The notes under the pieces are model-generated. The model was not told where the DNA came from and searched no databases. It saw only the letters and a program-made list of their open reading frames with translations. From the sequence record ON075799: a DNA stretch of 64,000 nt; one strand, written 5' to 3'. The DNA comes from Escherichia phage vB_EcoM_TH18. Below are positions 13,680-34,141 of the stretch, one piece after another. Made by a program: the position numbers and the translations under genes. Numbering within the stretch: position 1 is the stretch's first letter; every line of letters begins with the position of its first letter.

Positions 13680-13701
13680 ATGTATTCTCCTGTTTGCAAA
13701 A

Positions 13702-14553: not shown

Positions 14554-14597
14554 AGAAACCTCACTTGTTATTGTATGATTTTATCATAAATATTTTA

Positions 14598-14627
14598 TTA
14601 AAACAACAAAAAGGGGCAAAAGCCCCT
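14598..14627 (-). terminator. Hairpin ggggcaaaagcccc with U-run on minus strand after tape measure gene
   Basis: GC stem-loop plus T-run in minus orientation directly after stop of 14633..17017. Confidence 0.5.
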
Positions 14628-14632
14628 TCAAA

Positions 14633-17017
14633 TTATTGAGGGACAGCGAGAATAAGATTAATGTTATCCATGTTAGCTGTCTCTATTTGCTGATCAATCA
14701 TATTACGCAATTCTCCAGCATCTATTTTAATTGTTATTTCACCACTGACAGGCTCGGTAGGAATAACCATAGGAGCTACAGTTTGACCTGTAGCAGATCC
14801 GCCAGGCATTAGATTATGGGATTGAAGATAGTTGGCTTTATCCTGCATATGCCCAGCCCATAAACTATCCCACCATTGAGAAAGGCCGCCTGAAATACTC
14901 CTGTTCTTAACAAAATCTTCCTGCATTGATTTTGTAGGTATTTGGTCAGAACTTGGTTCTTCGGAGTCATCAACATCCAAACCTGTTGCTGCTATAGCGG
15001 CTGTTGCTAACAAACCGATCCAACCTTTCCCGCGTCTCAGGAATTTTGGTATTCTTGGTTTTCTTGGATTTTTAGGTTTATCACCTCCAGAGCCGTCACC
15101 ATCACCAAAGATATCCTTCAATACTTTCAATGTTCCAGTTATTCCAGCAATTTTAGCCAAGATTCTGAATACTCTAACCAAGGAAGCCGCGAAGAATAGA
15201 GCACCGAGACCCCAACCTATCCAGTTAGTCGCTTTTTGGAATGTCTCACTCTCTTTTACCCACTGTGGTATAGAATTTTTTATTGCCAGGTTGATAAACA
15301 GAAGTGTATCTACCACCGTTAGGGATATATCCTTAAACCCCTGTATAAATCTTGCAACAAATTCCCCTAAATTAGTGGCTAACTCTCCATTGGTATCCAA
15401 TACGTCAGCTAGGGTATTAAACGTTTTAGTTAATTCATCCCCAAATCCACTTTCAAATATCTTATTTTGAAAGTTCATCCACGTTTGTTGTAAACGCTGC
15501 ATAGCAACACGGTTGCTTTCTTGTGCCTTGGTAAGTGCACCACCTTTTCTTGCGGCCTCGGCATAATACTTAGCGACCAAAGGAAGAATTTCTGAAGCCT
15601 TTAGCTCTCCCTTCTTCATCATATCCATTAATTTTGCAATGTCTATAGATGAATCATTGAATGCTTCTTGTGTGGCTTTAAGGAATACATTAAGAGAACC
15701 TGGAATACCTTCGGAAAGTTGTGATTTTAACTCCTCAGCCATGATCTGACCTTTACCCATCATTTGTTGGATAGCGGTAATACCACGCTGGTATTTTACA
15801 GGATCAACCTGAAGTGCAGTAGCATATTCTGAGAAACCTTTGAATAGTTCGTCATTTTGCGCCTTGCTCAAAACACCATTAGCAGATATAGCCATTTGGG
15901 TATAACCTTGGGCGGCTGTTTTTAAATCCAAACCCAATCTGTAAGATTGCTCCCGAACAAACTGCATTCTTTTCGCAGCTTCTTCTGAATCATCAGAAAC
16001 CATTAACATGGTAGCTTCCATGCCTTGAAAGAATTGCCCTGTTTTCACAACACTCGCGGCAGCATTAAAAGCGCCATAAGCAGCAGAGACACTAATTAAT
16101 GTGCTACGAAGGTTTTTCAACCCTTGGTCAAGAGATAGTGTATTTGCCTTAGCTTTGCGGAGTCCTGTTTCCATTGCTGCCAATTCAGCACGGAAATTAG
16201 AAGCTCTCATAGTCTGGCTTTGCATAAATCTCTTTTCCAGATCATCATAACCTTTAATTTTAGATCTGAAATCGTCACCATACTTAGCACGAAGTCTTAC
16301 AGCAGCGTTAGCAATTGTTGATTGTTTTGCAGCCTTTATCCTTTCTGCTCTTAACGCTTCTCTTTCTTTCTTTTTATTGGCATCTTTTTCTGCCTTAATC
16401 TCATCCGCTGTTTTTTCTTTCGGGATAGATTTATGATAGCGTTCCATAGCAGAGTTCTGAGCAGCCACAAGACTTGGATCGTGACGACTATTAGGATCCC
16501 CAACAATACCAGAGGCCGATCCTGAAGACCTTCTTGCTGCAAGTTCTTGCTGTAATCTTGCTTGACGGGCAGCAGATATTTCTGGATTTGTCCCATATCC
16601 AGAACCTGTTTTTTCCATCTGCTTCAACTTTGATTTTAATGCATTATATTCTTTTTGTTCTTCAGGTGTTCTTCTGTTTGTTAGTCTGGCTACTGCTTGC
16701 TTTCTTCTCGCACTCTCAACTTTAGCTATTTGTTCACGAGCACGAGCTTCCTTTTTTGCCATTGCAATAGCATGTGCTGTAGATTTTGCTTGCTCTGCAC
16801 GTTCAGTTTGGTGTAATCTTTTAGCTACAAGACGAGCCTCTTGCGCGGAACGTTTATAAATTGCTGCCGGATTACTTTTATTAGAAGTGAAAGCTCTGTT
16901 AGTCTTTTCCCATTCACTTTTCAGGGATTTTATAGCTTTCATTGCACGACCGTAACTGGTGCGGTCTACAGACCACTCGACAGTATTTACGGTTTTAGTT
17001 ACTATGATATTCGCCAT
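14633..17017 (-). CDS. Tail tape measure protein (794 aa)
   Basis: Long Ala/Lys/Gln/Glu-rich predicted coiled coil; hydrophobic segment near C-terminal third; located after tube and chaperone genes. Confidence 0.8.
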   Translation of the reverse strand: MANIIVTKTVNTVEWSVDRTSYGRAMKAIKSLKSEWEKTNRAFTSNKSNPAAIYKRSAQEARLVAKRLHQTERAEQAKSTAHAIAMAKKEARAREQIAKVESARRKQAVARLTNRRTPEEQKEYNALKSKLKQMEKTGSGYGTNPEISAARQARLQQELAARRSSGSASGIVGDPNSRHDPSLVAAQNSAMERYHKSIPKEKTADEIKAEKDANKKKEREALRAERIKAAKQSTIANAAVRLRAKYGDDFRSKIKGYDDLEKRFMQSQTMRASNFRAELAAMETGLRKAKANTLSLDQGLKNLRSTLISVSAAYGAFNAAASVVKTGQFFQGMEATMLMVSDDSEEAAKRMQFVREQSYRLGLDLKTAAQGYTQMAISANGVLSKAQNDELFKGFSEYATALQVDPVKYQRGITAIQQMMGKGQIMAEELKSQLSEGIPGSLNVFLKATQEAFNDSSIDIAKLMDMMKKGELKASEILPLVAKYYAEAARKGGALTKAQESNRVAMQRLQQTWMNFQNKIFESGFGDELTKTFNTLADVLDTNGELATNLGEFVARFIQGFKDISLTVVDTLLFINLAIKNSIPQWVKESETFQKATNWIGWGLGALFFAASLVRVFRILAKIAGITGTLKVLKDIFGDGDGSGGDKPKNPRKPRIPKFLRRGKGWIGLLATAAIAATGLDVDDSEEPSSDQIPTKSMQEDFVKNRSISGGLSQWWDSLWAGHMQDKANYLQSHNLMPGGSATGQTVAPMVIPTEPVSGEITIKIDAGELRNMIDQQIETANMDNINLILAVPQ

Positions 17018-17068
17018 AGATTTTCCTCAATAAAAAAGCCAGGTTCCGAGAAGGAACCTGGCTTGAGA

Positions 17069-17311
17069 TTAACCTCTTCTACCTCGGCGCGACCTATTTG
17101 CAGCGGCGGCAGCATTGGCTGCACTTTGTTCCTCTCTCTCCTGTACGTCTTGGATAAACTCTTCAATATCAAGATATTCGTTCAGTTTAAGCAGGTAGGC
17201 CATGTCAGCAGACTCAAGTGAGGAATAAGACTCACCTTTAAAACTCTTCAGAGCACGACACCACAAATAATCGAACCAAGTCAATGAGCTATTTTTTCTT
17301 GCATAATTCAT
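17069..17311 (-). CDS. Tail assembly chaperone, downstream frame (80 aa)
   Basis: Small acidic ORF between chaperone ORF and tape measure; reading frame is -1 relative to 17347..17880. Confidence 0.35.
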   Translation of the reverse strand: MNYARKNSSLTWFDYLWCRALKSFKGESYSSLESADMAYLLKLNEYLDIEEFIQDVQEREEQSAANAAAAANRSRRGRRG

Positions 17312-17346
17312 AGCTCTCAGGACAACTTTCGAAATATTAGACGGTG

Positions 17347-17880
17347 TTACTCCGCTTCCTCTGCCTGATCCATCGTGTTCAGTTGATGGGTCTGACCCAG
17401 GCGTCCCAGAAGATCCTGAAGGTTTGCGAAACCGTCTTTCGTGAAAAAACAGCCGTAGTTAACCTCCAGCACTTTTGCCACGAGTTTGATAAGGTCCATC
17501 ATCTTCCCTTGGAAAATATCATCAATGTCTACCTTACCTGCCATACCATCAACAGACACATCGTCCAGAATTAGCGCAAAAAGTTCTTCAATATTATCTT
17601 GCTCCATCTGGTCAAACAGGTATAATACTGCTGTTGGGATAGCATCAGAAAGATTCTGCCCACCAGACATAAGTGCTCCAGAAATGGATGCCATTGGAAC
17701 AGCAATATAACGTCCTATCTTAGGAATATTTTTAAATGCTTTTGTTGGGGACCAATGTGTAATAACAAAGTTGTGACCCGCCAAGTCAATTTCAGTTGTT
17801 TGTCTGATTTTCATGCACGCTCCTGCGTCTTTAGAAGTTGAACTATCCTTACGTGTATAAAGGCCACATCCATGTGGCAC
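17347..17880 (-). CDS. Tail assembly chaperone (up to 177 aa; true start may be the internal Met near 17814)
   Basis: Canonical position between tube and tape measure; acidic C-terminus. Confidence 0.45.
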   Translation of the reverse strand: MPHGCGLYTRKDSSTSKDAGACMKIRQTTEIDLAGHNFVITHWSPTKAFKNIPKIGRYIAVPMASISGALMSGGQNLSDAIPTAVLYLFDQMEQDNIEELFALILDDVSVDGMAGKVDIDDIFQGKMMDLIKLVAKVLEVNYGCFFTKDGFANLQDLLGRLGQTHQLNTMDQAEEAE

Positions 17881-17889
17881 ACGAAATTA

Positions 17890-18363
17890 TTAAACGATAC
17901 CGGAAAGTCCAGCGAGGCCAAAGCCAACAGAGGACAGAGTATCAGGACTCAACCAAGCATCCAGAATACCAATTTCCCAGTCCATCTGACCAACTTCCGT
18001 TCCATAAGTCAGATCAGGCTGTTTCTGAATCCATCCAATTGTACTCAAACCCATACCTTGAGAACCTTCCAGAAGAACAGGGAAGAAAATAAGGCCAGTT
18101 ACGGATGCTTGTTTTTGCCAGTTTGCTAAATTACCATTCCATGATGCTGTATTCTGAAGAGAAACCGTCATAACACCAGATTGGTTACGGGACAGTGCAG
18201 CAGATAGCTCACCATCAACCCCCATGTGGGGGTTGATATTGTCTTCGTTACGTGACACAACAATTTTCGTGTCCGCTGCGAATCCTGTTACTCTTTGAGT
18301 CATCAGGTACAGTTTTACTTTTTTAGGGTCATATGCATACGGCGTTAGAATAGCTGTATTCAT
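17890..18363 (-). CDS. Tail tube protein (157 aa)
   Basis: Immediately downstream of sheath gene with 3-nt gap; size typical. Confidence 0.65.
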   Translation of the reverse strand: MNTAILTPYAYDPKKVKLYLMTQRVTGFAADTKIVVSRNEDNINPHMGVDGELSAALSRNQSGVMTVSLQNTASWNGNLANWQKQASVTGLIFFPVLLEGSQGMGLSTIGWIQKQPDLTYGTEVGQMDWEIGILDAWLSPDTLSSVGFGLAGLSGIV

Positions 18364-18366
18364 TTA

Positions 18367-19779
18367 TTACACTCCTGCTGTTACTGTCTGTGCGTTACCA
18401 GAATTTGAACCTGTTTTGTCCAGCATGACAGTCATACGGATCTTGACAAAATGTAGCGGTGTGTTGTATACCAGTTCCACTTTCACGTTGTTAAGTGTAC
18501 GTGCTGCCAGATCGTTAGTAGGTATGCTTCCACGCAGAGGGATTGTGATTACAGGGTCGAAGAAGACCTTGTTAACCTCATCATAACCTGTTAAAATAGC
18601 CCCGTTAGAAATACCTACGTTGATAGGGTTATTCATGATGACAGACTTCAGATTAGGAAGGTCATCATCGCTCATTTTAACAGACAGCCCCATGTTGGAT
18701 CTGCGAGACATATATCCGAAAACACTTTCTTCGGTGCGGAACTTAAGCCAGTGACCAAATCTCACAACATCTACATAATTACCAGAAGCGCACTTACCTT
18801 CATAGAAGGAGCCTACACCATTAATCATGCGGTAGAAGTTAAGATTCTTACCCCAGATTGTCATGCGGTCAGTGGCACTCAAGGTAGGTGCAATAACTCC
18901 GTCCATAGTCTTCAGGTGAATAGAATCCCCGTAAGAAGGATCGTTAGATGCCATTGCCCCGATAATTCCTCCTTCTGGGTAGGCGCTGTCTGCCAGCGGA
19001 TCGTACATACCAATAGATGTGTCGTATTGCAGAGCTTTCAGTTCATCTGCAATAGAGTCACTATCGGCAGTTTTAGATTTTTCATCAGCAGTTGAGTAAA
19101 CATGCATCTTGTAATTTGCAGCGGCGAATGCGGCGGCACTTAAGATAGATGTTTTTGTATGTGACTCAGTACTGACAAAATACCAGTTCTCATTTGCGGT
19201 CATAACCTGCGGAAGAACAGAAGAAACTGTCTCATCGGAGGTATTGGTGATGACCATATTTCCGCTATCTTTACCAACACTAAACTTGCCACTGTCTTTT
19301 GGGGCAATTGTTACTTTAGCTTCGCTTGCTGTTGCCGTAAGTACAGTCTTCAGCGTTGTATCCGCATTAATAGCGTCAGCCAGAGATGTGGCGATTGCAG
19401 AAGGCTCTGAAGATACATTTACATTGACAAGTATGCTCTTTTGATAAGCCCCTGTCACAAAGTTTAGAGCTACAGGTGTTTCTGGGTCTGTATTTGTCTG
19501 GTCTGTAAAATCCACAACCGTATTGGTGAAGCCTTGGCGACCAATCATCAAATATTGTGGACGGAATGTTCCAGAAAATGCCTTAGATGCATAATTATAT
19601 GCAGGTGTTCCAACAGCAAATCCATCATCAACTAATTGACTAAGTTCGGTATAAGCACGAACTCTTTCTGGGAAGACATTATGGATCGCAAGGAACAGTG
19701 GGGTTTCAAACCCTTTTGTGTCGATTGGTTGAGTACCAAGTGTGACTGTTACATCAACCACCTTGTCATTATAAGCCAT
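18367..19779 (-). CDS. Contractile tail sheath protein (470 aa)
   Basis: Size, position before tube gene, high-expression codon bias. Confidence 0.8.
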   Translation of the reverse strand: MAYNDKVVDVTVTLGTQPIDTKGFETPLFLAIHNVFPERVRAYTELSQLVDDGFAVGTPAYNYASKAFSGTFRPQYLMIGRQGFTNTVVDFTDQTNTDPETPVALNFVTGAYQKSILVNVNVSSEPSAIATSLADAINADTTLKTVLTATASEAKVTIAPKDSGKFSVGKDSGNMVITNTSDETVSSVLPQVMTANENWYFVSTESHTKTSILSAAAFAAANYKMHVYSTADEKSKTADSDSIADELKALQYDTSIGMYDPLADSAYPEGGIIGAMASNDPSYGDSIHLKTMDGVIAPTLSATDRMTIWGKNLNFYRMINGVGSFYEGKCASGNYVDVVRFGHWLKFRTEESVFGYMSRRSNMGLSVKMSDDDLPNLKSVIMNNPINVGISNGAILTGYDEVNKVFFDPVITIPLRGSIPTNDLAARTLNNVKVELVYNTPLHFVKIRMTVMLDKTGSNSGNAQTVTAGV

Positions 19780-19905
19780 CGATTTCCTCTTTTATTTCTG
19801 TACGTACAGTTATTGACCAGCACTTATTTGTGCTGTGTTATGGGTTATTTCCCCACATCGTGATCACCAATAAGCCAGTGCTTATCAATAACCAAAATAT
19901 TTCTT

Positions 19906-20436
19906 TTAATCCTCTCTCGGAAAATGATATGAAAGTTGCGCATTGAGGGTTTCCAAATCTTCGAAAACTCCAGTGTCTGTTTCTGCAAAGCAAACATTAA
20001 AAGTTATCAGCACTACAGCCCGAGTTTCATATTTTTGGACATTCAAAGGAACTCTCAACCGAGATATTGTTGAAGAGGAGGAATATGCAAAAGGTGAATT
20101 AGTTGGGAAATACTTATCGTATATAAAAGGTAAGTTCATAGCCTGTAGAATACGACTTAGGGCATTTGGTGCTTTACCACGATAAGCAGTCAATGTATAT
20201 ACAACTTCATAGTTATGGACTGTCATCGCTCGACCATCATCAGTAAATCCATCGTCTGATTGCCAGTCAAGCTGATCTACAGCAGTGAGGTCCACTAGAA
20301 TAAACTCACCATCAACTTTAGGTATTTCATCTTCCCCTGCCAGCACGACTTTCCTACCAGTAACTTCTTTACAAAAAGAACCTATTGTTTTCGTCAAGGC
20401 ATCGAAGATTTCATCTGTACTGATAAAATCAGTCAT
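19906..20436 (-). CDS. Head-tail joining / tail completion protein (176 aa)
   Basis: Block of four small co-directional ORFs between head module and sheath. Confidence 0.4.
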   Translation of the reverse strand: MTDFISTDEIFDALTKTIGSFCKEVTGRKVVLAGEDEIPKVDGEFILVDLTAVDQLDWQSDDGFTDDGRAMTVHNYEVVYTLTAYRGKAPNALSRILQAMNLPFIYDKYFPTNSPFAYSSSSTISRLRVPLNVQKYETRAVVLITFNVCFAETDTGVFEDLETLNAQLSYHFPRED

Positions 20437-20870
20437 TAAATACCTCCGTTTGTTCCTTCTGGTATTGCCACCACATAGGCTCTGAACCTAGAGACACCTG
20501 TGGTCTGATACAAATCAGATTTAATAACTGTGAACCACTCCATCTCACCACGAGAGTTCATTAATAGGATCTGATCAGCCATGTTATCAGATCCTTCTAC
20601 TGGGCCTTTTAACATCACAGATGAATACACTGTAAAGGAATCATACTGTCTGCCACCTTCAGGAACTAATTGGGACGTGTAATCCCTAGCTGCTTTACCA
20701 CTAATAGGTTGAACAACACATTCAGGTACATCAAATTCAACATACTCAATATCCAACCCACCATTTTCAAATGGGTTATCTAAGTCTGTCTTTTTGAACT
20801 GTCTGTGTCTACCTTTCATGGTGACTCTGGGTATCAATTTGTTCTTTCCTATAAGTTTGTATCCCGCCAT
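20436..20870 (-). CDS. Head-tail joining protein (144 aa)
   Basis: As above; start overlaps stop of upstream ORF. Confidence 0.4.
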   Translation of the reverse strand: MAGYKLIGKNKLIPRVTMKGRHRQFKKTDLDNPFENGGLDIEYVEFDVPECVVQPISGKAARDYTSQLVPEGGRQYDSFTVYSSVMLKGPVEGSDNMADQILLMNSRGEMEWFTVIKSDLYQTTGVSRFRAYVVAIPEGTNGGI

Positions 20871-21415: not shown

Positions 21416-21934
21416 TCAATAATACCTGTGTTTTGGGTATCTCCGAGGAATACCGGGGACTCCTGTTTGAGGAACTATACCAGAAACATCAAACGGGCTT
21501 CTGGAGTTTGGATTGTTCTTGACACGCCAAAACTCATCCTGCCGCACACCACCCACAATAATCAAACCAGAGACACCATTCAGACAACTATTGACGTAAT
21601 CAGGGTTTTGCAGTAGCCAGTCCAGAAAATCTTTCCAGTTCTGGTATGACGAGCCACCTTTCACCTGTATTGTCTCATCACCTATCTTTTCCAATCTTTC
21701 TGTGATGGATGCCTCACCAGAATTTATCTCTTGAAGAATTAACCATCTTAACACAGCTACCATTGTGTTATAGACCACTTTCCACATATCGCAGGGCGTA
21801 GATGATGGATTAGGCCAGTTTGCTCTTTTTTTCTCCATCTCAAGGAATGCCATAATAACTTCATCAGGTAATGTCTCTGGGGATATTGACCCGAGCAGGA
21901 GCCTGATGTAATCAACAATTTCTTGGTCTGTCAT
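21416..21934 (-). CDS. Head-tail connector/adaptor candidate (172 aa)
   Basis: As above. Confidence 0.4.
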   Translation of the reverse strand: MTDQEIVDYIRLLLGSISPETLPDEVIMAFLEMEKKRANWPNPSSTPCDMWKVVYNTMVAVLRWLILQEINSGEASITERLEKIGDETIQVKGGSSYQNWKDFLDWLLQNPDYVNSCLNGVSGLIIVGGVRQDEFWRVKNNPNSRSPFDVSGIVPQTGVPGIPRRYPKHRYY

Positions 21935-22061: not shown

Positions 22062-22466
22062 ATGAAAAATATTTTAAAAATTACAATTGGCCTGTGCGTC
22101 TGTGCTGTTATTGCAGCGGGAACTCTCCAATATGTGAAAAAGAACCCAGACATTAATGATTATAAATCTGTCGAGGCAAGTTGGTTGTCGCCAGAAGAAA
22201 AAGATGAGGCAATCAGCCGTATTGTGCAATTATCTTGCGATAAAAGATTCAGAGAAGCATTTAAGCCAGACGTTATTGTTGTGTCATCAGGCTTTGAAGG
22301 CAGGATCGCAGAGCAAGCGGAAGCATATCAATATTTTGATGATGTCGCAATTATCTCAGGAAAACAATCTTACACTGGAAAATACATCTGTACTTTTTAC
22401 AAAGATGGGCGTGAACCGTATATTAATGCAAACTTGAATAAGGGAGTACAAGAACTCCTAAAATAA
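22062..22466 (+). CDS. Secreted or lipoprotein-like protein (134 aa), opposite-strand insert in late module
   Basis: N-terminal signal-peptide-like hydrophobic segment (MKNILKITIGLCVCAVIAAG); own promoter, SD and terminator; only plus-strand gene within about 37 kb of minus-strand genes. Confidence 0.6.
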   Translation: MKNILKITIGLCVCAVIAAGTLQYVKKNPDINDYKSVEASWLSPEEKDEAISRIVQLSCDKRFREAFKPDVIVVSSGFEGRIAEQAEAYQYFDDVAIISGKQSYTGKYICTFYKDGREPYINANLNKGVQELLK

Positions 22467-22492
22467 AAGACCCCGAAGGGTCTTTTTATTAC
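22467..22492. terminator. Bidirectional intrinsic terminator (aagaccccgaagggtcttttt)
   Basis: Perfect GC-rich hairpin flanked by A-run and T-run, between convergent genes. Confidence 0.7.
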
Positions 22493-22746
22493 GACATAAT
22501 ACCAGCGGCTTTCAACTTGGCAAGCAAAGCATTAAAATCACTTACCAACGTAGAGACATCTGAAGCCATAGAATCTGCTTGTGTTTGTGCTTTCTTAACA
22601 CCTCCTAATGCCGATTCCGTAGCCGCTGGAAGAACATAGCTATCTGAGCCTCCAGCAACAATATCTTCGATTTTCACAGATTTTCCAGTTTTTATATCAA
22701 TAAGGCTTGATGCATATACTTTACCAGCCACACCTGTAGTTGCCAT
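22489..22746 (-). CDS. Small fiber-like protein (85 aa) sharing N-terminus with the 416-aa fiber protein
   Basis: N-terminal MATTGVAGKVYASSLIDIKTGK resembles MTATTGVGGLIYGRALVDQKTGK of 25110..26360. Confidence 0.45.
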   Translation of the reverse strand: MATTGVAGKVYASSLIDIKTGKSVKIEDIVAGGSDSYVLPAATESALGGVKKAQTQADSMASDVSTLVSDFNALLAKLKAAGIMS

Positions 22747-22756
22747 AATTATCCCC

Positions 22757-24547
22757 TTAGTTGTTTAGATAAGAATATTGCAAGAAATATTTAAATTCGT
22801 GGACTTGTTCGTCCGCTCCTGCAATAGGAATGATTCCATTAAGTCCTGATAAACCGTCTCCACGAAGAAGTTTAGTTATTACCTTCGTCTTAGGATCAAT
22901 GGTATGCGTAGGGACTGTTGGTAAAATAAGCCATACAGCCACTGTAGGTTGCCCTGATCCGACAACACTTGGATATTCTGCATAGATATCATAATCAAGA
23001 TACGTACCGTCTTCCGTACAAGGTATCTCTGTCAAACGAACATCCACCATAACATCTGTGCTGCCAGCAGGTGATCTGTTCAAATAAACTGTTGTTTTCA
23101 AATATATAGAAGACCCTGATCTTCCTGCTGCGTTTTTCGCTGAAGGTATGTCACTATAATTGAAAGAGAAATTCCCAGATGTTGCTGACAACCTCATAGT
23201 CGGCTGAGGAGAAAATGGGATATTAAAGCTCGCTTGTTGACTTGAATCATCTGTCATTGTAAAAGTTAGTGTAACCTGTTGTGCACTATCTATTTCTTTA
23301 ACAACAGCATTAACAGATTTTATTGTTTGTCCATCAGCACCTTTAGGAATACCTAAGTTAAGAACTTGTGAAGGGGAATCACCAGTTATTGATGCGGTCG
23401 CCTGTTGCCCACTTTGCAAAGAGGAAACTGTGCCGATAGATAGTGAATAGGTGGCAGAACTTCCTCCAAGGTCTACCCAAGAAACAGGGGTACTAGGGTC
23501 TGAGCCTCTAATTGTATACTTAACACTACCATCCGCGCCATAAAACAAGATCAACTTACTTGCCGTTGCTGAAGTTTTATCGTTTTGCCAATTATCTAGC
23601 CATATTATTTCAAATACGCCAGAGTTTGCTGGGGATTGTATATGGGCATAATACCTCCCCGGCATGGTCTGATTGGCAAGAGAAGCGATCTCATCAATGT
23701 TTAGCAACGATAAGGTGACACCATCACTCGCTGCCATACCGTACCCAAAACTTCCCGGTATGGCAGCAACACCAGCCGTGCGATCATGAATATTCGCTTG
23801 TTTGGCAGTTAACAAATCATACCACACTGCTGGGTCACTTAGATTGTTACCACGGATCGTATATTTCATATGACCGTCTTTACCAAAAAAGAGAACCAGC
23901 TTTGTTGCTGTCTGGCTTGTTTTGTCACCCCAGCCATTATCCAGCCAGATAATTTCTGTTATTCCTGTCATTTCCTCCGATTTTGTGGTGAAAGTATAAT
24001 ACCTTCCCGGATGTAAGTTATGGGCAGAACGCGCAACATCACCAAGACTGTTAGCAATAAGTGAAGTTCCTCCAGGATTTGTCATTCCGTAGCCGAAAGC
24101 GCCAGGCAAAGCTGCAACACCAGGTGCAGAATCATAAAGCCATTCTTGCACTTTGGTAGGAGCAACATACAACCCCTCTTCTCCTTCAGAGGTTATATTT
24201 GTTAAAGCGTTTCCTTCTTTAGGAGAAATCGGAATATTTATTTCAGGTGCTGTTACATATAATGCTCCTTGCTTCAACTCCAGCAGGTTATTTGCAGCAG
24301 GACTCACCTTAACAGCTAACCCATTATCTCCAGCTTGGAGAGCATTATTTTCATCTTCTGCCACCACAACAACACCTTTAAGAGGTGTAGCTTCTCCCCC
24401 ATCACCTAATAATTTAAGCGTGAGGGTATCTTCCGTATGCAACTTAAATTTATCTCCGAGTGTACCGCCAGAAGTATCTATACTATAACCGTTAGGTAAG
24501 ATAACTTCAGCATTTACAACTTTATCTTTATAATCCATAACTACCAC
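22757..24547 (-). CDS. Fiber-like protein with internal tandem domain duplication (596 aa)
   Basis: Two consecutive ~90-aa repeats (…PGAFGYGM…PGRYY…EIIWLDN…KYTIRG…); same domain present once in 25110..26360. Confidence 0.5.
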   Translation of the reverse strand: MVVMDYKDKVVNAEVILPNGYSIDTSGGTLGDKFKLHTEDTLTLKLLGDGGEATPLKGVVVVAEDENNALQAGDNGLAVKVSPAANNLLELKQGALYVTAPEINIPISPKEGNALTNITSEGEEGLYVAPTKVQEWLYDSAPGVAALPGAFGYGMTNPGGTSLIANSLGDVARSAHNLHPGRYYTFTTKSEEMTGITEIIWLDNGWGDKTSQTATKLVLFFGKDGHMKYTIRGNNLSDPAVWYDLLTAKQANIHDRTAGVAAIPGSFGYGMAASDGVTLSLLNIDEIASLANQTMPGRYYAHIQSPANSGVFEIIWLDNWQNDKTSATASKLILFYGADGSVKYTIRGSDPSTPVSWVDLGGSSATYSLSIGTVSSLQSGQQATASITGDSPSQVLNLGIPKGADGQTIKSVNAVVKEIDSAQQVTLTFTMTDDSSQQASFNIPFSPQPTMRLSATSGNFSFNYSDIPSAKNAAGRSGSSIYLKTTVYLNRSPAGSTDVMVDVRLTEIPCTEDGTYLDYDIYAEYPSVVGSGQPTVAVWLILPTVPTHTIDPKTKVITKLLRGDGLSGLNGIIPIAGADEQVHEFKYFLQYSYLNN

Positions 24548-25113
24548 CCAACTTTTATCCTTTGTAATTCCTCAACTGTAGAGGCTGAAAGCACTTGGTC
24601 TTTCATTTCTCGTTGCTTAGTGTATATTGAATCATTCTTAGTTGCCAACTCGGAAGACATAGCTACAACAAAATTTTCAAATTCAGAACTACTCATCTCA
24701 ACAGGTTTGTTATCAGCATCTCTCCAAATCACAGCTTGTTTAGCCGGAGATGCTTTTTGTGCTAATAATACTGGATAAATACGACATAAGGTTGCATTAT
24801 CAACATCATACCTTGCACCATTATAAGAAACAATAGTCGTAGAGCTTTCTTCCAGTTTTCTCCACTCTTTTATTTCTGATAACATCTGTTGCTTTAATGC
24901 CTCGATAAATTGAGGGTTTGCTGTATACGGGGCAATCTCTCCAAAACTACCAGATTGTAAGGAATCCCAAACTGCTTTCCCAGTTTCACTATAGTCGTTG
25001 CTAGAAGCGGTGTATGGGAGATAATCAGAAAAACCATTAAAAAGTACCAGACAATCAACGTCACCATTAAGAAGATATTGTGGAGACTTAATATCTTTAA
25101 TATCCAGCATCAT
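24541..25113 (-). CDS. Hypothetical protein (190 aa)
   Basis: ORF overlapping neighbours by a few nt. Confidence 0.4.
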   Translation of the reverse strand: MMLDIKDIKSPQYLLNGDVDCLVLFNGFSDYLPYTASSNDYSETGKAVWDSLQSGSFGEIAPYTANPQFIEALKQQMLSEIKEWRKLEESSTTIVSYNGARYDVDNATLCRIYPVLLAQKASPAKQAVIWRDADNKPVEMSSSEFENFVVAMSSELATKNDSIYTKQREMKDQVLSASTVEELQRIKVGW

Positions 25114-26360
25114 GCGATCCTCATAAAAAGACCAATATAACCTGTATCAGTACCATTTTTATTGCTTGGTGAACCGGATAAGGCTATAAACGTACCTCGC
25201 TGTGTTTCAGTACTGTGTGTAACAGAAACTGGCGTACTTTGAAATGCACCTGTTGTGGAAACCTTACTATAAAGAGTTATACAGCCTATGCGGGAACCTG
25301 GGATGGTCTGACCACGAACAAGTTTTCTGTTTGAATCAGTGTTCGAAGCGCCAAGATACACTCCCAACATCACCCCTCCAACATCAGGACTTCCCCATGT
25401 GTTTCCTACGGTTGATTGTAAATAGGAGAATTGTCCTTTTATATTTACCCAATCACCATCAGCAAAACTGGTTAGTAAGCGATAATAATACAATTCACCA
25501 TTTATGCCATAAAAATAGGCATGTTTACTATTTTTTGCTGCTTGCTCTGCATTCTCTGCTGGATATGGTGACAATACCTCAACCATACCTTTAAAAGTAA
25601 TCCCTTCAATAATACGTGTGTCACCTGAAGATAAATCTTGGTGAACAAGGTAACGACCAGGTTGTGCACTTCTCAACCAAGAAACCCATTCCTCTGGCCC
25701 ATTCTTCTCTTGAAAAACAACTTCTTTCTCGGCAGGGATAAACGCCCCAAAACCAAATGCCCCTGGTAAAGATACTACCCCATCTGTGGCATCATAGATA
25801 TCGTTTTGTACACCTTTTGTGGCAGCGGTTTTTATACCCAAGTAATCAAGAACCCCAGTTTTTGAATCTTGCCCTATGATAACTCGACCAACAGCAGAGA
25901 GATTTGCCAAAGCCATTACGTTTTTATCACTGAAATAAGCTAATTTATTTCCAGCAGTAATCAATCCTGACAAAGATGTCAGTATTTCACTCAACGGTTG
26001 TTTACCAGCAAGAGCGTTAGTGATTGTTGTTGCAAAGTTCGGGTCATCGCCTAATGCCTTCGCTAATTCATTGAGAGTATCTAATGTTTCAGGCGCTGAG
26101 TCAGCCAATTTTGCAATTAAACCCTTCACATATTCTACATTAGCTATTTCCTTTCCAATAGCATCATCCAACGGTGTTGGTGCTTGAGGGTTCCCTGTAA
26201 AGATAGGACTGTCTAAAGGAGCTTTGGATGCAATAAGATCCGTTATATCTTCTGGAATATTCCCACCACCCAACTCATCAAAATTTATTTTCTTTCCTGT
26301 TTTCTGGTCAACCAATGCACGACCATAAATTAAACCACCAACACCTGTTGTTGCTGTCAT
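25110..26360 (-). CDS. Fiber protein with SPIFTGNPQAPTP motif (416 aa)
   Basis: Same motif and identical 41-bp nucleotide stretch as tail fiber gene 2172..3926; shares C-terminal domain with 22757..24547. Confidence 0.55.
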   Translation of the reverse strand: MTATTGVGGLIYGRALVDQKTGKKINFDELGGGNIPEDITDLIASKAPLDSPIFTGNPQAPTPLDDAIGKEIANVEYVKGLIAKLADSAPETLDTLNELAKALGDDPNFATTITNALAGKQPLSEILTSLSGLITAGNKLAYFSDKNVMALANLSAVGRVIIGQDSKTGVLDYLGIKTAATKGVQNDIYDATDGVVSLPGAFGFGAFIPAEKEVVFQEKNGPEEWVSWLRSAQPGRYLVHQDLSSGDTRIIEGITFKGMVEVLSPYPAENAEQAAKNSKHAYFYGINGELYYYRLLTSFADGDWVNIKGQFSYLQSTVGNTWGSPDVGGVMLGVYLGASNTDSNRKLVRGQTIPGSRIGCITLYSKVSTTGAFQSTPVSVTHSTETQRGTFIALSGSPSNKNGTDTGYIGLFMRIA

Positions 26361-26389: not shown

Positions 26390-26899
26390 TTATGATGCTT
26401 CTAATTCAGATTTAAGATCAGCAATCATCTTTTCAAAGGATTTGTTTTTAGTTAGTGTAACACCTTTAGAAAGTGCAAACTCAACTAATCTATCTTTACT
26501 ACCTTTTTTATCAGCTTCATCATTCAGAGACATTGCTTCCTCTAAAATCAGATCAATAGATAGATTTTCTTTATCAGCCTTTTTATCTTGCACTTCTACA
26601 ATCTTGGCATCAACTACCTTACCCAAGTTTTTCGGACTAGGGATATCTTTGTTGAAGAACACGATATAAGATCCCATACGAATAGTAGAGTGCTGTGCAT
26701 CAACATCTAAACCAGACAGCTCTGCAAGAGCAGTGAAAAACTCAACAGTGTTTCTGAATGCTTTGTGTTGTGTTCCCACACATAAACCGTTCAAAGGTAG
26801 TCTTGCTGAGACCGCTGCATTTAATTGCGGGGCGTATGCACCAAAAAACTTAAATAATTCCACCTTATTAGGGAAAATACGATAATTTTGATTCGCCAT
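26390..26899 (-). CDS. Hypothetical protein (169 aa)
   Basis: ORF downstream of major capsid gene. Confidence 0.4.
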   Translation of the reverse strand: MANQNYRIFPNKVELFKFFGAYAPQLNAAVSARLPLNGLCVGTQHKAFRNTVEFFTALAELSGLDVDAQHSTIRMGSYIVFFNKDIPSPKNLGKVVDAKIVEVQDKKADKENLSIDLILEEAMSLNDEADKKGSKDRLVEFALSKGVTLTKNKSFEKMIADLKSELEAS

Positions 26900-27030
26900 A
26901 AAATCTCCTTTTATTCCTTAGTAAAAACCACTTCACACCACAGGATAAGCGGCTATTATTAAGGCCGGAATGTGAAAAAAGGGGAGGTGATAATTCACCT
27001 CCCCTCATTAGAGGTAGCATTTAAGCTATC

Positions 27031-28044
27031 TTATTCGAAAGTACCAGTAGAACGTACAACCAGTTCAGGACGGGTGTTAACCGTCAAGAAGGAAGTTTCA
27101 GATTCAACTTTCTCTTCACGCAGATATGCAGAAGATTTGTACCACAGATACAGTTCTTCAGCTACAGTGTTTGCTTCACGAGCATCATCTGCCGGAGCAT
27201 AATGGATCTGGAACATATCATCAATACCTTGCGGCAGGATGTATGCTTCACCATCTGGGATATATCCAGAGATGTCTTCAATGTAGGTTACGTTCTTGTG
27301 AACAAACATACGGTTGTTGGCATTCTCAGAACCCATACCCAGACGACGACGCAGCGGCTCTTGGGTAGAAGAATAATACTGGTATGCATTCATGATCAGC
27401 GGATGGGCGATCAGAGCAGAGAACCATTTACGAGAAGCCAGAACAATGATATTGTAGTTATTACCGTTATCACCTGCATTGTCGATGATGTATGCGCGAG
27501 CGTCTTTCTCAATCAGGTCAGACGGGTCAACCGCAACATCTGTGAAGTTGATATTGGCAGTGTGCTGGGTAACTCCCCACTCAGTAAAGTAGTTGTACTG
27601 TGCGGTAGGATCTTGTGGAGACCATGATTTACCCATGATTGCCTGAACCATTGCTTTTTCTTTCAGTTGTTCATGAGAAACGCGAATACGCTTAACTACG
27701 CGAGCAACTACGTCTTCAACAGTTCTAGGAGCGTCCGTAGTGAAGTATTTACGGAAGTTCTGAACATCTGCCGCAGTGATCTGACGATCCAGAGGGAAGA
27801 ACGGAATGTTGAAGTTCTTGATTTGGGCTTTTTCACTACCAACATAGTTACGTTCTCCACCACGACGACGTGCAGGAATATCCGCAACAATTTCGTCAAC
27901 ACGCTCAACACGAGCAATTGTGGTTTCACCATGATAAGCGGTGAACAGATCCATGTTGGTAATCAGGCGATACTGACGTGGAACAAGTTCCAGTGCTGCG
28001 CCAAGGTTTACGATTTGAAAGTCGTTAGTCTGTACTGCTGCCAT
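27031..28044 (-). CDS. Major capsid protein (337 aa)
   Basis: Position after scaffold and decoration genes; markedly different high-expression codon usage. Confidence 0.7.
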   Translation of the reverse strand: MAAVQTNDFQIVNLGAALELVPRQYRLITNMDLFTAYHGETTIARVERVDEIVADIPARRRGGERNYVGSEKAQIKNFNIPFFPLDRQITAADVQNFRKYFTTDAPRTVEDVVARVVKRIRVSHEQLKEKAMVQAIMGKSWSPQDPTAQYNYFTEWGVTQHTANINFTDVAVDPSDLIEKDARAYIIDNAGDNGNNYNIIVLASRKWFSALIAHPLIMNAYQYYSSTQEPLRRRLGMGSENANNRMFVHKNVTYIEDISGYIPDGEAYILPQGIDDMFQIHYAPADDAREANTVAEELYLWYKSSAYLREEKVESETSFLTVNTRPELVVRSTGTFE

Positions 28045-30217: not shown

Positions 30218-31759
30218 TTAATTCTCTAAATTAGAAACAGAATTATCCCTCACTGTTGATATTTTTGATGTTCCGTTACCTGTTGACCCCGGAGTCATCC
30301 CATCCCCAGAACGACTTACATCCTGACCAAGAATTTGCAACAACTCCTCAAGATCCATATCTTCTGGGATTTCTTCGTCAAAACCACCAACCTCAAGAAT
30401 TTTATTAATAACTGTAGGTGTTTTAGGCAAATATCCAACAGCACCGATACGCTGAACAAATTTAGAGAATCCTTCCATATCAACTTCTTGAATAAGCCCA
30501 GGTTTTAATCTTGGCATATCTTCGTCAGATAATCTTATATCATTCAAAGCAAGAAGTTGGGGTATTAAGTTCTTATTGAACGCCTCGGTAATAATATCAA
30601 TATCTCTCTGGACAAAATGACCATGGATAGTTTGTTTTGATTCTGAAAGATTATAAGATCCCTGCCCGTCGTTACCTAAGTTAATAAACCCAGCACCAAA
30701 GCGATCAAGAATAGCCTTCTTACGAGAATTAACAAGCTCTTGAGTGCTGTATTGTTTACCTGCCCCATCTATCCCTTTGAGAGACATTTCATATTGTTTA
30801 CCACCTTGGTTATTGAGATCAGATGGTAAAATAAAGTAGGCTTGTTCTCCAGCATGTGCGTTAGCAGCATCTGCCATTAGTCCTTGCACCATAGCAGCTT
30901 CTGGTGATGTTGGGTCTATTGCTGCTTTATTAAGGATCTGGGAAGGTATTTTAAGTTCTATGATGCCACCAAGATCTTTAGATGCCCCAATAGTCTCCAA
31001 ATTTTCTATAAGGATCTTCTCTCGGAATGCCCTATAACAACCTACTAACGGTGATACCCCAGCCGGGTTGGATTCCGTACCTCCCAAACTCATTATCATC
31101 AACTTATTAACTGGAATAAAAACATCATCACCATTAGTTAATTTACGGATAATGCTTAAAGTGTCACCTAGCATTCCGTTTTGTAAATTAGAGAAAGCCA
31201 AACTGCTTTGGTTAATGCCCTTCAGCGTCTTGCCATCGGCATCAAATACCCAAGGCTTTGATCTGGAAAGACTGCACTGCGGCCTGAATGCAATTTTATC
31301 AATCGTAATATACCCAGCATACCTTGAAGTATCTGGCTCAGTACGATAAACTTTTTCAAATATCGAAAACCCATACTCATTGAACGTTGCTGCGCTTCTG
31401 GCTATATCACGCAGAGTTTGTTGATTAGCAAGATTCTTCAGTGCATACTCCACAAACTCAGCAGCTTTCTTAGATTTTCTGCTATCTCTGTTATACAAGA
31501 TTTTAAAATCATTGAATGCTTTGGTTACAAAGACATATTTTGTATCAAGGGCTGTGGAAACTGTGTGGTCTTGCTTCATGGCTTCAACAGTGGCGATGAA
31601 ATTAGGCCATCTCAACTCCTTAACTTTCATAATCTCTGATTCAGCCCTAAGTTGAGAAAGAGCACCAGAGCCTAACTCCCCAGTGCGAAGACGACTAACA
31701 GCAAGTCTCTCATTACCTGCTTTAGAAATCTCTTCTTGTTGTGCAAATCTTGTTGACAC
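30218..31759 (-). CDS. Portal protein (513 aa)
   Basis: Size and position immediately downstream of large terminase. Confidence 0.6.
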   Translation of the reverse strand: MSTRFAQQEEISKAGNERLAVSRLRTGELGSGALSQLRAESEIMKVKELRWPNFIATVEAMKQDHTVSTALDTKYVFVTKAFNDFKILYNRDSRKSKKAAEFVEYALKNLANQQTLRDIARSAATFNEYGFSIFEKVYRTEPDTSRYAGYITIDKIAFRPQCSLSRSKPWVFDADGKTLKGINQSSLAFSNLQNGMLGDTLSIIRKLTNGDDVFIPVNKLMIMSLGGTESNPAGVSPLVGCYRAFREKILIENLETIGASKDLGGIIELKIPSQILNKAAIDPTSPEAAMVQGLMADAANAHAGEQAYFILPSDLNNQGGKQYEMSLKGIDGAGKQYSTQELVNSRKKAILDRFGAGFINLGNDGQGSYNLSESKQTIHGHFVQRDIDIITEAFNKNLIPQLLALNDIRLSDEDMPRLKPGLIQEVDMEGFSKFVQRIGAVGYLPKTPTVINKILEVGGFDEEIPEDMDLEELLQILGQDVSRSGDGMTPGSTGNGTSKISTVRDNSVSNLEN

Positions 31760-31774: not shown

Positions 31775-32560
31775 TTATATTCTTTTATACAAGGTAGGAG
31801 CTACAATTTTTGGAATAACAACAGGTTTGACTATTTCTTCTTTTTCAAGATAATTTATCCCAGAAGAAATGGCGTCGACCCAATCGTCTTTTCTTGTCGT
31901 TGTACTCCTTTCCCCATTGAACTTTTCAAGCTCTGTCATAAGGGCTTCATAAGTTTTAGGATCAAAACTATCACGAACTATTCTCACCATACCTGCTTGA
32001 GCAAGTTTTGCAAAAGGTGTAAATCTTGTTAATTTTGATTTATTGGTTGGTGTAGGATCTTTTTCTACTGTAAATCCTTCCGCTATTAGTTCACGAGAGC
32101 TTGTTAAAAATTCACTTATTCCTGCTTGTCCTGGGTCAACACTGAAAATTATGGTAACATCATCACCATCAAAATAAGCCTGTTTCTTAATGATAACATC
32201 ACGTTCCCCAGCTTTTTTACAGAATCTCCCCTGCGTTTGAGTTGAATATCTACCATCATCAAAAAATTCAGGACAATAATCACCAGACAAATAGTAAAAG
32301 CCATCATTGTCTTTACTTACCTTAACAGATGCTGTAAAGTCAGGATATCTGTTTCCAGATGTTCTTTCTGTACCTGCTTTATCATACGGACGAACAGATA
32401 CAACACCGAGAGGTAAGCAGGGAACCTCTTTTAAATAAGATCTCTGGAAATAGTTTGCCCCTTCAGGTCTTGCGTTCCAGTTTCCATGCAATAACTGGGC
32501 TTTTTCTACCTCTGGAAGACCTTCAAGGAATGCTAGATAATCTGGGTTATTCTCCAGCAT
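31775..32560 (-). CDS. terL: Terminase large subunit, exon 3 (nuclease domain; 5-prime boundary approximate)
   Basis: Open frame continues upstream of the listed Met; acidic motif KDDWVDA near C-terminus; preceded by group I intron core. Confidence 0.6.
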   Translation of the reverse strand: MLENNPDYLAFLEGLPEVEKAQLLHGNWNARPEGANYFQRSYLKEVPCLPLGVVSVRPYDKAGTERTSGNRYPDFTASVKVSKDNDGFYYLSGDYCPEFFDDGRYSTQTQGRFCKKAGERDVIIKKQAYFDGDDVTIIFSVDPGQAGISEFLTSSRELIAEGFTVEKDPTPTNKSKLTRFTPFAKLAQAGMVRIVRDSFDPKTYEALMTELEKFNGERSTTTRKDDWVDAISSGINYLEKEEIVKPVVIPKIVAPTLYKRI

Positions 32561-33575
32561 GGGAGGATTATCGAATCCTTGTATTCAAGGTTGGACGCAA
32601 CGCCAACCCCCGCACCACTACGTGCTGCTGCATGTCACCATGCAGAGTAGACTATATCACCACCCACACATAATGGGTGCTTCGCTTTTCGAACGCCATT
32701 AGCTTGCGATCTACTCCCTTGCGGGATAGTCGTTGAACTACATTACCATTCATAGTTGTTTGAGATATAGATGTAAGTTTTTCTATCTTTTATTCTTCTA
32801 ACAAGATTAAAACTAACACCCCATTTTTTAGATATCTTATTAATGCTTAGGATACCGTCTCTCAGATCTTCACATATCCCTATAACTTTGGATTCACTAA
32901 TTCTGTTGGAAGAAGGAACCATCCTGAAATTAAACTCTTTAGAAATGTCTGGGTAGACTCTCCCAGCTTTGATACTACTAACCACAGTCTGCCCAATACC
33001 AAACATCTCACTGATATCCTTTACTCTAGCACCCTGCTCAAGTAATCTGCATATCTCAAGGGCAGTGTTATCATCAAGAGGCCTGTAACTGTTTACATAA
33101 GACTTCTTAAGCCCTATTTCATGTGCGTGATGTGTGCTTTCCTTTGCAGTTGTCCACTCAAGATTCCACGCTGCGTTATTAAGTTTGTTTCCATCTAAAT
33201 GGTTCACTTGAGTTTTTGTATCAGGGCTATCATTCTCGACAAAAGCAAAAGCAATAACCCTATGGACAAGAACTTGAAACTTTTTACCATCCTCACACAA
33301 CGTTAACATTGCATAGCCAGTTTTCTTATGGACATTAGGATGTAAAAATTTGTGGGAATACAAACTATAAATTCTTCCATCATACGTCGCACAATAATGG
33401 GAATACCCTAAAAATCCTAAATTTTTCATCTCAAACATTCTCCCTACTACAGTTTCGGAAAAGTAATTATAGCTGCTGATTGCCCTTATACAAAGGGTTT
33501 CCCAGCAATTAACGAAGTTATTCGACATGCATTACTGCATGAAGCCACTATTCTTTTAATGGTTGCGGAAATGAA
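32561..33575 (-). mobile_element. Group I intron 2 carrying an HNH homing endonuclease ORF (boundaries approximate)
   Basis: Minus-strand reading shows P-like AAUUGCUGGGAAA, P5 hairpin, Q-like AAUCAGCAGC upstream of ORF, and R-like GUUCAACGACUAUC plus S-like GAUAUAGUCU downstream, giving P7 pairing GACUA/UAGUC. Confidence 0.65.
32743..33438 (-). CDS. HNH homing endonuclease (232 aa from MFEMKNLGF…)
   Basis: Typical N-terminus (KNLGFLGY…YDGRIYS) and HNH motif VNHLDGNKLNNAAWNLEW; SD AGGGAGA upstream of Met; lies inside intron between P/Q and R/S elements. Confidence 0.75.
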   Translation of the reverse strand: MFEMKNLGFLGYSHYCATYDGRIYSLYSHKFLHPNVHKKTGYAMLTLCEDGKKFQVLVHRVIAFAFVENDSPDTKTQVNHLDGNKLNNAAWNLEWTTAKESTHHAHEIGLKKSYVNSYRPLDDNTALEICRLLEQGARVKDISEMFGIGQTVVSSIKAGRVYPDISKEFNFRMVPSSNRISESKVIGICEDLRDGILSINKISKKWGVSFNLVRRIKDRKTYIYISNNYEW

Positions 33576-33914
33576 GGAAAATGAAAGCGGTTTAGGCTTT
33601 CTTTTCTCATCCTTGCCATCCCAATACTTTTCAATTAATTCTTGCTCTGAGTCACCCCAGATAAATTCTCCGTCACGTCTTATAAACCATCTAATCACCC
33701 CATCTCGTTCAGGTATAGGATATCCCTCATCGTCTAAATACCAAGAAATCAACTCCTTAATCTTATGATCTGGATCAGGGTTACAAGAGATAACCATCCT
33801 GCTCGGATATTTAGAGTTTGAACGTAGACGAGATATCAGATAATCTATCTGTGACCATGTGAATTGTGTTCCCTCATCAAAGCCGATGAAGGTATACTGC
33901 AACTTATTGTCCCC
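33572..33914 (-). CDS. terL: Terminase large subunit, exon 2 (Walker B region; boundaries approximate)
   Basis: Hydrophobic stretch ending in FIGFDEGT (Walker B-like), then ISCNP (coupling-motif-like); no ATG start; flanked by intron cores. Confidence 0.6.
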
Positions 33915-34141
33915 TCAGTTCGCTACACTGAGGCGGTGTGCCAAGACACCCGCCACATGTTTCCATGTGGAACAGACTATATCTTCCATCCTTGGCGTGC
34001 CGTTTGGATCACCAATCGCTTGTGATTCTACTCTCCTACACTCATCGGAGATAGTCGTTACACCCAGATTTTATATTTCCATATTCTGTGGCACGGTATT
34101 TTCCCATAGGGAGTTCCACCGTTATAGGCACGAAGGGCAAG
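33903..34141 (-). mobile_element. Group I intron 1, ORF-less (boundaries approximate)
   Basis: Minus-strand reading contains R-like GUGUAACGACUAUC and S-like AAGAUAUAGUCU (near-consensus), several hairpins, no ORF; separates Walker A and Walker B coding segments. Confidence 0.6.

Follow-up and report, generated by a model that had tools for sequence, protein, structure and literature searches.

Head fibres, decorations at hexamer centres and modular tail fibres are each already known, separately from one another. SPP1 gp12 and proteins of the T4 Hoc type are trimeric or elongated proteins at hexamer centres, to which the proteins described below bear a likeness of concept only, and in large myoviruses host recognition is ascribed to the fibre network of the baseplate. 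Here we describe a cassette of five genes (p169, p416, p190, p596 and p85) that lies between the capsid and head-to-tail adaptor genes of Escherichia phage vB_EcoM_TH18 (record ON075799) and was analysed within a stretch of 64,000 nucleotides, hereafter the window. The closest described counterparts of its smallest product, p85, are structural proteins of heads: in crAss001 gp21, residues 1-38 bind a hexon pocket and the domain in common with p85 faces outwards (PMC10172136), and gp45 of Shigella phage B2 is a trimer at the quasi-sixfold axes (PMC11654681). In phage phiTE, cryo-electron microscopy (cryo-EM) revealed an unmodelled density at the hexamer centres, the "Pagoda," which was tentatively assigned to pTE217, a protein ranking fifth in abundance in the virion (PMC11972413).

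We consider the odds to be about even that the cassette is a variable locus of the Vequintavirinae whose products include accessory virion fibres made up of exchangeable modules; as far as can be read from sequence, the modular build, the homologies and the shuffling stand on firm ground. The argument starts from p85 (22489..22746, minus strand, 85 residues), a small "head fibre," and p416 (25110..26360, minus strand, 416 residues), a chimeric fibre, which have in common an N-terminal stretch of ~33 residues that we term anchor A (residues 1-33 of both, nucleotides 22648-22746 and 26262-26360, respectively). The likeness of these two N-termini had been pointed out in a preliminary description of this DNA and is borne out by pairwise comparison (14 of 31 positions identical, E 1e-7) and by a hidden Markov model (HMM) of the N-termini of small head fibres from other phages, which retrieved p416 at E 4.5e-8. 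The target of this search was 2788 open reading frame (ORF) segments from the window and the loci of its relatives, among which p416 was the sole match from outside the seed. When the anchor-A profile was run against the 2788 ORFs, a weak alignment to residues 10-36 of phiTE_217 (E 0.012; pairwise, E 0.002 with p416 and 0.046 with p85) was the sole extra match. A side observation concerns phrog_21621, a family of 103 residues whose N-terminal half resembles residues 1-49 of phiTE_217 and whose C-terminal part resembles residues 376-444 of p596, hinting at another small protein with an anchor-A-like start and a p596 module.

When the anchor-A profile was compared to 1.84 billion representative proteins, 18 clusters were matched at E<1e-3, and in 17 of these the match fell at residues 1-37 of proteins ranging from 62 to 587 residues. 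The exception, P0362 (1148 residues), accumulated its 77 bits in its interior, over 16 short stretches (profile positions 14-23), and not at the N-terminus; it was rejected as probably a repetitive protein and a spurious match. Two subtypes of the anchor, both persisting across genera, distinguish short constant fibres from long variable ones, with p85 carrying subtype A1 and p416 subtype A2. Judged by these alignments, anchor A is a genuine, position-specific module. It is also joined to very different cargoes: in AV124 and VLCpiM5b to collagen repeats and an Sf6/HS1 tail-needle knob, and in Hena1 to an 858-residue exopolysaccharide (EPS) depolymerase (E 1.1e-8, with an HMM of small head fibres only). 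A profile search did not find anchor A in the baseplate and tail-fibre blocks of either the window or phiTE. Docking of anchor A on p596, whose own, different N-terminus we call anchor B, was considered and ruled out, because anchor-A proteins occur without an anchor-B fibre in KpS11 and in the metagenomic loci L013 and L014.

Residues ~28-85 of p85 form a C-terminal domain of the phi29 gp8.5 type. The protein scored 64.5 bits against PF11133 (Phage_head_fibr; cutoff 24.6), the alignment being confined to profile positions 212-277 of 277, and its matches in the PDB were phi29 gp8.5 (E 9e-10), crAss001 gp21 (E 5e-9) and B2 gp45 (E 1.5e-8). The N-terminal, capsid-binding base of gp8.5 (residues 1-~110) has no counterpart in p85, as it is the last ~66 profile positions alone that match. 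Orthologues of p85 are found at the equivalent position in Seunavirus, Mydovirus and Henunavirus.

Behind its anchor, p416 consists of a shaft resembling those of prophage fibres (residues ~38-182, nucleotides 25815-26249), one knob (residues ~183-308, nucleotides 25437-25814) and a C-terminal tip (residues ~309-416, nucleotides 25113-25436). Residues 38-416 (~91% of the query) show 45-57% identity to distal regions of prophage side tail and P2-type fibres, homologues that carry PF08400, PF03406 or PF12571, and residues 6-416 align with residues 630-1061 of Rac-SA53 tail3. Pfam searches identified neither PF08400 nor PF12571 in p416 or p596; the homologues carry these domains upstream of the aligned region. 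PF11133 had no match in either protein. The shaft motif of p416 matched PDB entry 9d93, "tail collar fibers" (E 3e-12); however, the match covers a shaft motif found in many tail-fibre PHROG families, not the attachment part. By these alignments p416 is the distal ~380 residues of a prophage side tail fibre placed on anchor A.

A chaperone-type gene, p190 (24541..25113, minus strand, 190 residues), directly follows p416, and none follows p596. Its product contains DUF4376 (Pfam E 1.1e-12) rather than Caudo_TAP, belongs to phrog_1141 (E 8e-67) and is 40% identical (E 9e-55) to Rac-SA53 tail4, which is encoded by the gene after the prophage side tail fibre gene. Based on this identity, p190 is likely the cognate assembly chaperone for p416, and it is absent from relatives whose fibre is without the p416 tip. 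A kinship of p190 with PVP-SE1 gp68 or phiTE_216 was rejected, as there was no similarity. In Av-05 (NC_025830, positions 12500-20500 of locus L002) the p416 orthologue is followed by genes of non-structural proteins (DprA-like, methyltransferase and tRNA nucleotidyltransferase), not by the p169 and capsid genes; the Av-05 record is only 120.9 kb long, and this odd neighbourhood may reflect a rearrangement or an assembly problem.

The third fibre-like product, p596, was delimited as an ORF of 596 residues (22757..24547, minus strand), although its true start is probably the ATG at 24538 (MDYKDK..., 593 residues), as in GenBank and in the orthologues. It comprises anchor B with a shaft-start motif (residues 4-130, nucleotides 24158-24538), two knob repeats and a C-terminal region that includes the tip (residues 363-596, nucleotides 22760-23461). 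The N-terminal ~130 residues are 55% identical to gp69 of Salmonella phage PVP-SE1 (918 residues) and related to phiTE_215 (1099 residues), residues 106-344 are 47% identical to Rac-SA53 tail3, and the segment after the knobs matches phrog_6614 and phrog_21962 (minor tail protein and tail protein). The tip shares 89% identity with that of P0020, an anchor-A fusion protein, and its sole homologue in the phage database is from a Serratia phage. Comparison of the p596 sequence to the PDB gave chance matches only. AlphaFold2 modelling of the whole 596-residue protein from an alignment of 37 sequences was unusable (mean predicted local distance difference test, pLDDT, of 41), whereas a single repeat modelled alone gave a confident result. 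CB7 and W70 virions contain orthologues of p596 in abundance, at a position that these studies did not establish (PMC7344957; PMC11370258). In Av-05 the p596 orthologue (L002 8710-10678) is annotated as two overlapping coding sequences (CDSs) of 545 and 115 residues, which tblastn joins in two pieces; the split could stem from a frameshift or a sequencing error, or the tip may really be truncated.

The two repeats of p596 are adjacent (residues ~131-246, nucleotides 23810-24157, and residues ~247-362, nucleotides 23462-23809) and are 50% identical over 109 residues by BLASTP (E 2e-36). The preliminary description was thus right about the presence of two consecutive repeats; its figure of ~90 residues for the unit was too low, the length being ~115 residues. 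It had also placed one copy in p416, and this is confirmed at 30% identity to repeat 2 over 106 residues (E 2e-10; against repeat 1, E 2e-7), so that the similarity among all three copies is backed by alignment statistics. The repeat was found in 226 of 357 homologues, once in 91, twice in 34 and three times in 101, and most of its carriers are E. coli and Salmonella prophage side tail fibres of ~1000 residues with Pfam prophage tail-fibre N-terminal and Phage_fiber_2 domains. Of the proteins that begin in the same way as p596, fourteen carry a single copy and five carry two. The knobs of E. coli prophage fibres are closer to repeat 1 (72% identical) than repeat 2 is (50%); the closest relative of repeat 2 is a metagenomic fibre (64%), and at the DNA level the similarity of the two repeats is limited to a stretch of 44 nucleotides at 73% identity. 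A recent tandem duplication in this lineage was therefore rejected, given the negligible DNA identity and the closer relation of repeat 1 to the prophage copies; as judged from these identities, the array arose by module exchange and its two copies are old. Two metagenomic fibres, P0127 (656 residues) and P0128 (533 residues), have the N-terminus MAGNRVNLTFNMSDGEE, two or three knobs and a p416-like tip; they carry neither anchor A nor anchor B and thus represent a further fibre architecture.

Modelled alone with AlphaFold2, repeat 2 has a predicted strand-helix-four-strand fold (pLDDT 81, predicted template modelling score 0.71). Its best matches in the PDB were the phi812 baseplate chain 9euf_8, phage K gp144 (5m9f) and the R1 pyocin fibre (6cl5), and it also matched predicted tail fibres in a library of viral models. 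Since the PDB matches are weak (E 0.04-0.7, template modelling scores 0.40-0.45, 12-16% identity), the fold identity of the repeat is not established, and we refer to it as a knob-like tail-fibre domain with no firm fold assignment.

The preliminary description had treated these genes as a single paralogous family, which overstated their relationship: they form a mosaic in which p85 and p416 have the anchor in common and p416 and p596 the knob, and BLASTP detected nothing in common between p85 and p596. Its suggestion of modular duplication and shuffling fared better and has good support, as there are orthologues with one or two knobs, metagenomic fusions of the p416 N-terminus with the p596 tip, and distal parts that come from prophage fibres.

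The same interval in relatives illustrates the variability of the cassette. In phiTE (Certrevirus) the layout, genes 214-217, is that of the Seunavirus phages PVP-SE1 and EspYZU15, which encode a large anchor-B fibre, a protein of 214 residues and a small anchor-A protein (84 or 128 residues). KpS11 (Mydovirus) has a p169-like gene and a head fibre of 99 residues, to which VLCpiM5b and AV124 (also Mydovirus) add a protein of 210 or 379 residues composed of anchor A, collagen repeats and the Sf6/HS1 tail-needle knob, the knob matching PDB 3rwn at E 3e-38 and 2.5e-28 in these proteins. Hena1 (Henunavirus) has a head fibre of 96 residues followed by the 858-residue EPS depolymerase with its anchor-A start. 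Two metagenomic Avunavirus-like contigs have a single fibre, with the p416 N-terminus and the p596 tip (89% identical), and are without p190 and an anchor-B gene. In rV5 (Vequintavirus) the interval between the capsid and adaptor genes contains a split p169 homologue only (L015 4528-5356), with gp59 (74 residues) resembling the N-terminus of p169 and gp58 (193 residues) its C-terminus, and no head-fibre gene; the idea that rV5 has the same fibres was consequently rejected. As gp59 and gp58 match the two halves of p169, this Inh-like gene appears to have been split or rebuilt in Vequintavirus.

Where on the virion would such fibres sit? We propose that p85 and p416 are both trimers, which anchor A would dock on the capsid surface, probably at the hexamer centres. 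The head would then display many short fibres and fewer long ones bearing tail-fibre tips, and these tips could bind host surface glycans reversibly and so aid adsorption. The p416 fibre would probably be folded with the help of the adjacent chaperone-like p190, and p596 would represent a second fibre with anchor B, two knobs and its own tip. The head location is our best reading because the phiTE gene at the p85 position encodes the tentative hexamer-centre capsid protein: phiTE genes 213-218 parallel the major capsid protein (MCP), p169, fibre, p85 and adaptor genes of the window, with phiTE_217 in the place of p85. Virion proteins at this locus have been identified in CB7 (CB7_10, 11, and 12; PMC7344957) and in W70 (W70_129 to 131; PMC11370258), and are tied to the cassette via PHROG membership. 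The preliminary description had suggested neck, whisker or head fibres, which is plausible for p85 and p416 and does not extend to p596, which could not be placed.

Several points weigh against a capsid location. The assignment of the Pagoda to pTE217 is tentative and was made on abundance alone (PMC11972413), and the link between phiTE_217 and anchor A is statistically weak (E 0.012; pairwise E 0.002-0.05). The "head fibre" label of p85 derives from its distal domain, and no similarity could be detected between anchor A and those parts of phi29 gp8.5, crAss001 gp21 or B2 gp45 that bind the capsid. Anchor A carries tail-fibre tips, a tail-needle knob and an EPS depolymerase, cargoes that are normally tail-borne. 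Anchor B differs from anchor A, and a profile of the p596 N-terminus weakly matched a stretch of shaft in the interior of gp124, the baseplate tail spike of phage Milano (E 0.017), as well as such a stretch in a related solved fibre (E 0.0012). The virion support comes from phiTE, CB7 and W70, and a literature search for head fibres of rV5 and the Vequintavirinae found nothing relevant. Setting these points against those in favour of the capsid, we estimate the probability that anchor A docks p85 and p416 on the capsid at about 0.5.

The cargoes lend some weight to an alternative that we consider unlikely, namely that the proteins are tail fibres of the ordinary kind whose genes simply lie among those of the head. 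Anchors A and B would then attach to the baseplate, to the sheath or to a further tail fibre, and so add to the many-fibred adsorption apparatus that characterizes rV5 and phi92-like phages. True prophage tail fibres are homologous to p416 and p596 in their distal parts, p416 has a chaperone-like partner, anchor A elsewhere carries a tail-needle knob or an EPS depolymerase, and the anchor-B profile weakly matches a baseplate tail spike. In addition, the phiTE authors count a previously annotated "third putative fiber" in the tail fibre network (PMC11972413), probably pTE215, the anchor-B orthologue, and Vequintavirus phages have many unlocated fibres (PMC12143355). Yet no protein examined from the baseplate and tail-fibre blocks has anchor A, and the phiTE baseplate was modelled from nine proteins, with no anchor-A-like one mentioned in the main text. 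Moreover, pTE217 is far too abundant for an accessory baseplate protein, and the cassette has its own terminators within the head module.

The same abundance, on the order of that of the major components, counts against a further alternative, in which these would be neck or portal-vertex fibres (whiskers) anchored on the adaptor, on portal-proximal capsomers or on a collar. Precedents are T4 Wac, the collar and whiskers of Bas63, and crAss001 gp21 where it occupies hexons that surround the portal. The genes are directly upstream of that for the adaptor (21416-21934), neck-fibre genes of other myophages are also in the head module (PMC12609058), and a low copy number would suit the long fibres and the depolymerase better than 120 sites per head. 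However, the phiTE neck, resolved to ~3.1-3.3 Å, is described in the main text as portal, adaptor, head-completion and tail-terminator rings only, without the words "collar" or "whisker" (PMC11972413), and CB7 virions nonetheless contain all three cassette products. A search of the PDB produced no match between a cassette protein and the solved collar or whisker proteins (T4 Wac, Bas63 gp5, XM1 gp40). On balance, we find a neck location slightly less probable still than one on the tail. That p85 is instead an assembly or capping factor whose N-terminus contacts p416, in a hetero-oligomer or to control its incorporation, would fit its very small size and the restriction of its likeness with p416 to the N-terminus, but is highly improbable, because KpS11 and PVP-SE1 have small anchor-A proteins with no long partner, the homologous proteins of 97-99 residues in crAss001 and B2 are structural capsid trimers, and the CB7 protein at the p85 position is present in virions.

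The sequence of the window matches that of Escherichia phage 18-1-2 (OK136180; Avunavirus, Vequintavirinae) at 100% identity and that of Av-05 at ~90%. All of its structural genes are on the minus strand, beginning in transcription order with the portal gene (30218-31759, minus strand), which is followed by those for the protease, a scaffold-like protein, a decoration protein and the MCP (27031-28044, minus strand), and then p169, p416, p190, p596 and p85. Beyond p85 are a convergent membrane-protein gene on the plus strand, the head-to-tail adaptor (minus strand; PF26075 is recorded on identical genes of related contigs), the neck proteins, the sheath (18367-19779, minus strand) and, beyond the sheath, the block of baseplate and conventional tail-fibre genes (~187-10981). 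GenBank labels the fibre genes as "tail fiber protein" or "hypothetical protein," with "head fiber protein" used in Av-05, and an NCBIfam search gave no match for any cassette protein.

The five genes of the cassette are flanked by two intrinsic terminators. The upstream edge is marked by a terminator 3' of the MCP gene (26975..27004, minus strand; GGGGAGGTGA-ATTA-TCACCTCCCC followed by TTTTTT), and terminators are annotated at the equivalent site after the MCP gene in phiTE and rV5. At the downstream edge there is a bidirectional terminator (22461..22487; GACCC-TTCG-GGGTC with T-runs on both strands) common to p85 and the convergent membrane-protein gene, and in PVP-SE1 terminators are annotated on both strands at the equivalent site. 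Both were identified by reading the intergenic letters, as a scan for consensus promoters and terminators performed no better than on shuffled sequence.

The first gene of the cassette, p169 (26390..26899, minus strand), belongs to phrog_3259, and its C-terminus matches phrog_1051, "inhibitor of protease." Its sequence is similar to that of Inh, the T4 inhibitor of the prohead protease, and p169 is not a fibre. It is conserved across the Vequintavirinae, being homologous to phiTE_214 and to both rV5 gp59 and gp58, and PF26097 (Phage_Inh_N) is recorded on genes identical to it in related contigs. The convergent gene of 134 residues (22062..22466, plus strand) is likewise not a fibre; it matches phrog_11434, "membrane protein" (E 6e-65), and is kept at the same spot in PVP-SE1, EspYZU15, KpS11, AV124 and VLCpiM5b. 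Its label in OK136180 is "adenosine deaminase," in contrast to the membrane-protein PHROG match, for which the category is "moron/host takeover"; the product has a hydrophobic N-terminus and its gene sits within a structural operon.

Two further observations were made elsewhere in the window. The terL gene (31775-35512; L001 17776-21001) is annotated in three pieces with an HNH homing endonuclease gene between, and the same interruption in rV5 (where the CDS is joined) and phiTE suggests that it is of intron or intein type and conserved in the subfamily. In the baseplate block, a protein of 687 residues (6724-8787, minus strand) with a Calx-beta domain matches the N-terminal and TIM-barrel domains of a "non-contractile tail sheath protein" (E 3e-76), a family that is unexpected in a contractile-tailed phage.

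Beyond the docking of p85 and p416 themselves, there is a chance somewhat short of even that Vequintavirinae capsids have a general docking site, probably at the hexamer centres, that is addressed by the tag of ~33 residues and displays tail modules on the head. The modules displayed may include side tail fibre tips (with their chaperone), the Sf6-type needle knob and the EPS depolymerase of the Erwinia phage Hena1, and the two anchor subtypes might address different hexamer classes of a T=13 shell. If such a site exists, the head would take part in host recognition and capsule degradation, and with tips, knobs and depolymerases placed on the capsid it would be part of the adsorption apparatus. 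Predictions of host range from "tail fibre" annotations would then need revision for the subfamily, members of which are in wide use for phage therapy and biocontrol work (Av-05, PVP-SE1, Klebsiella Mydovirus and Erwinia phages). The docking of tagged proteins would also supply a candidate identity and docking segment for the phiTE Pagoda density, and a modular tag could serve as a handle for the engineering of capsid display. Our literature search returned no description of an N-terminal tag common to a small head fibre and to tip, needle-knob or depolymerase proteins, nor of a positional tie between such a tag and the phiTE Pagoda candidate. Should the capsid location prove to be wrong, the locus would still be a clear case of fibre evolution by exchange of anchors, knobs and tips between virulent phages and prophages.

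Compared with the systems from which its parts are known, the cassette has both likenesses and differences. With phi29 gp8.5, crAss001 gp21 (97 residues) and B2 gp45 (99 residues), p85 has the C-terminal domain in common, and with gp21 and gp45 also its size and layout, a short N-terminal part being followed by the conserved domain; it differs from all three in that its N-terminal part is lineage-specific and not detectably related to theirs, and in being known from sequence alone. No known member of the phi29-type head fibres has its anchor in common with long fibres made of tail-fibre modules. SPP1 gp12 has a collagen-like shaft, as do the anchor-A proteins of AV124 and VLCpiM5b. The closest parallel to the locus as a whole is in phiTE, where the capsid and adaptor genes enclose the same cassette, pTE214-217, with its order kept: pTE214 is the counterpart of p169, and pTE217 is at the position of p85, its N-terminus weakly resembling anchor A (E 0.012). 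However, the body of pTE217 (164 residues, phrog_20253) is unrelated to p85 and p416, and phiTE is without equivalents of p416 and p190 and has pTE216 (phrog_4998), which is absent from the window. The lambdoid and P2-type side tail fibres (Rac-SA53 tail3/tail4; Stf/Tfa) resemble p416 and p596 in their shaft, knobs (one to three) and tip, which are 37-57% identical. The tandem arrangement of the repeats along the fibre is plausibly comparable to that of the knobs of contractile-tail receptor-binding fibres. Unlike the prophage side tail fibres, p416 and p596 are without the N-terminal attachment domains and have N-termini specific to the Vequintavirinae in their stead, and their genes belong to the head module of a virulent myovirus.

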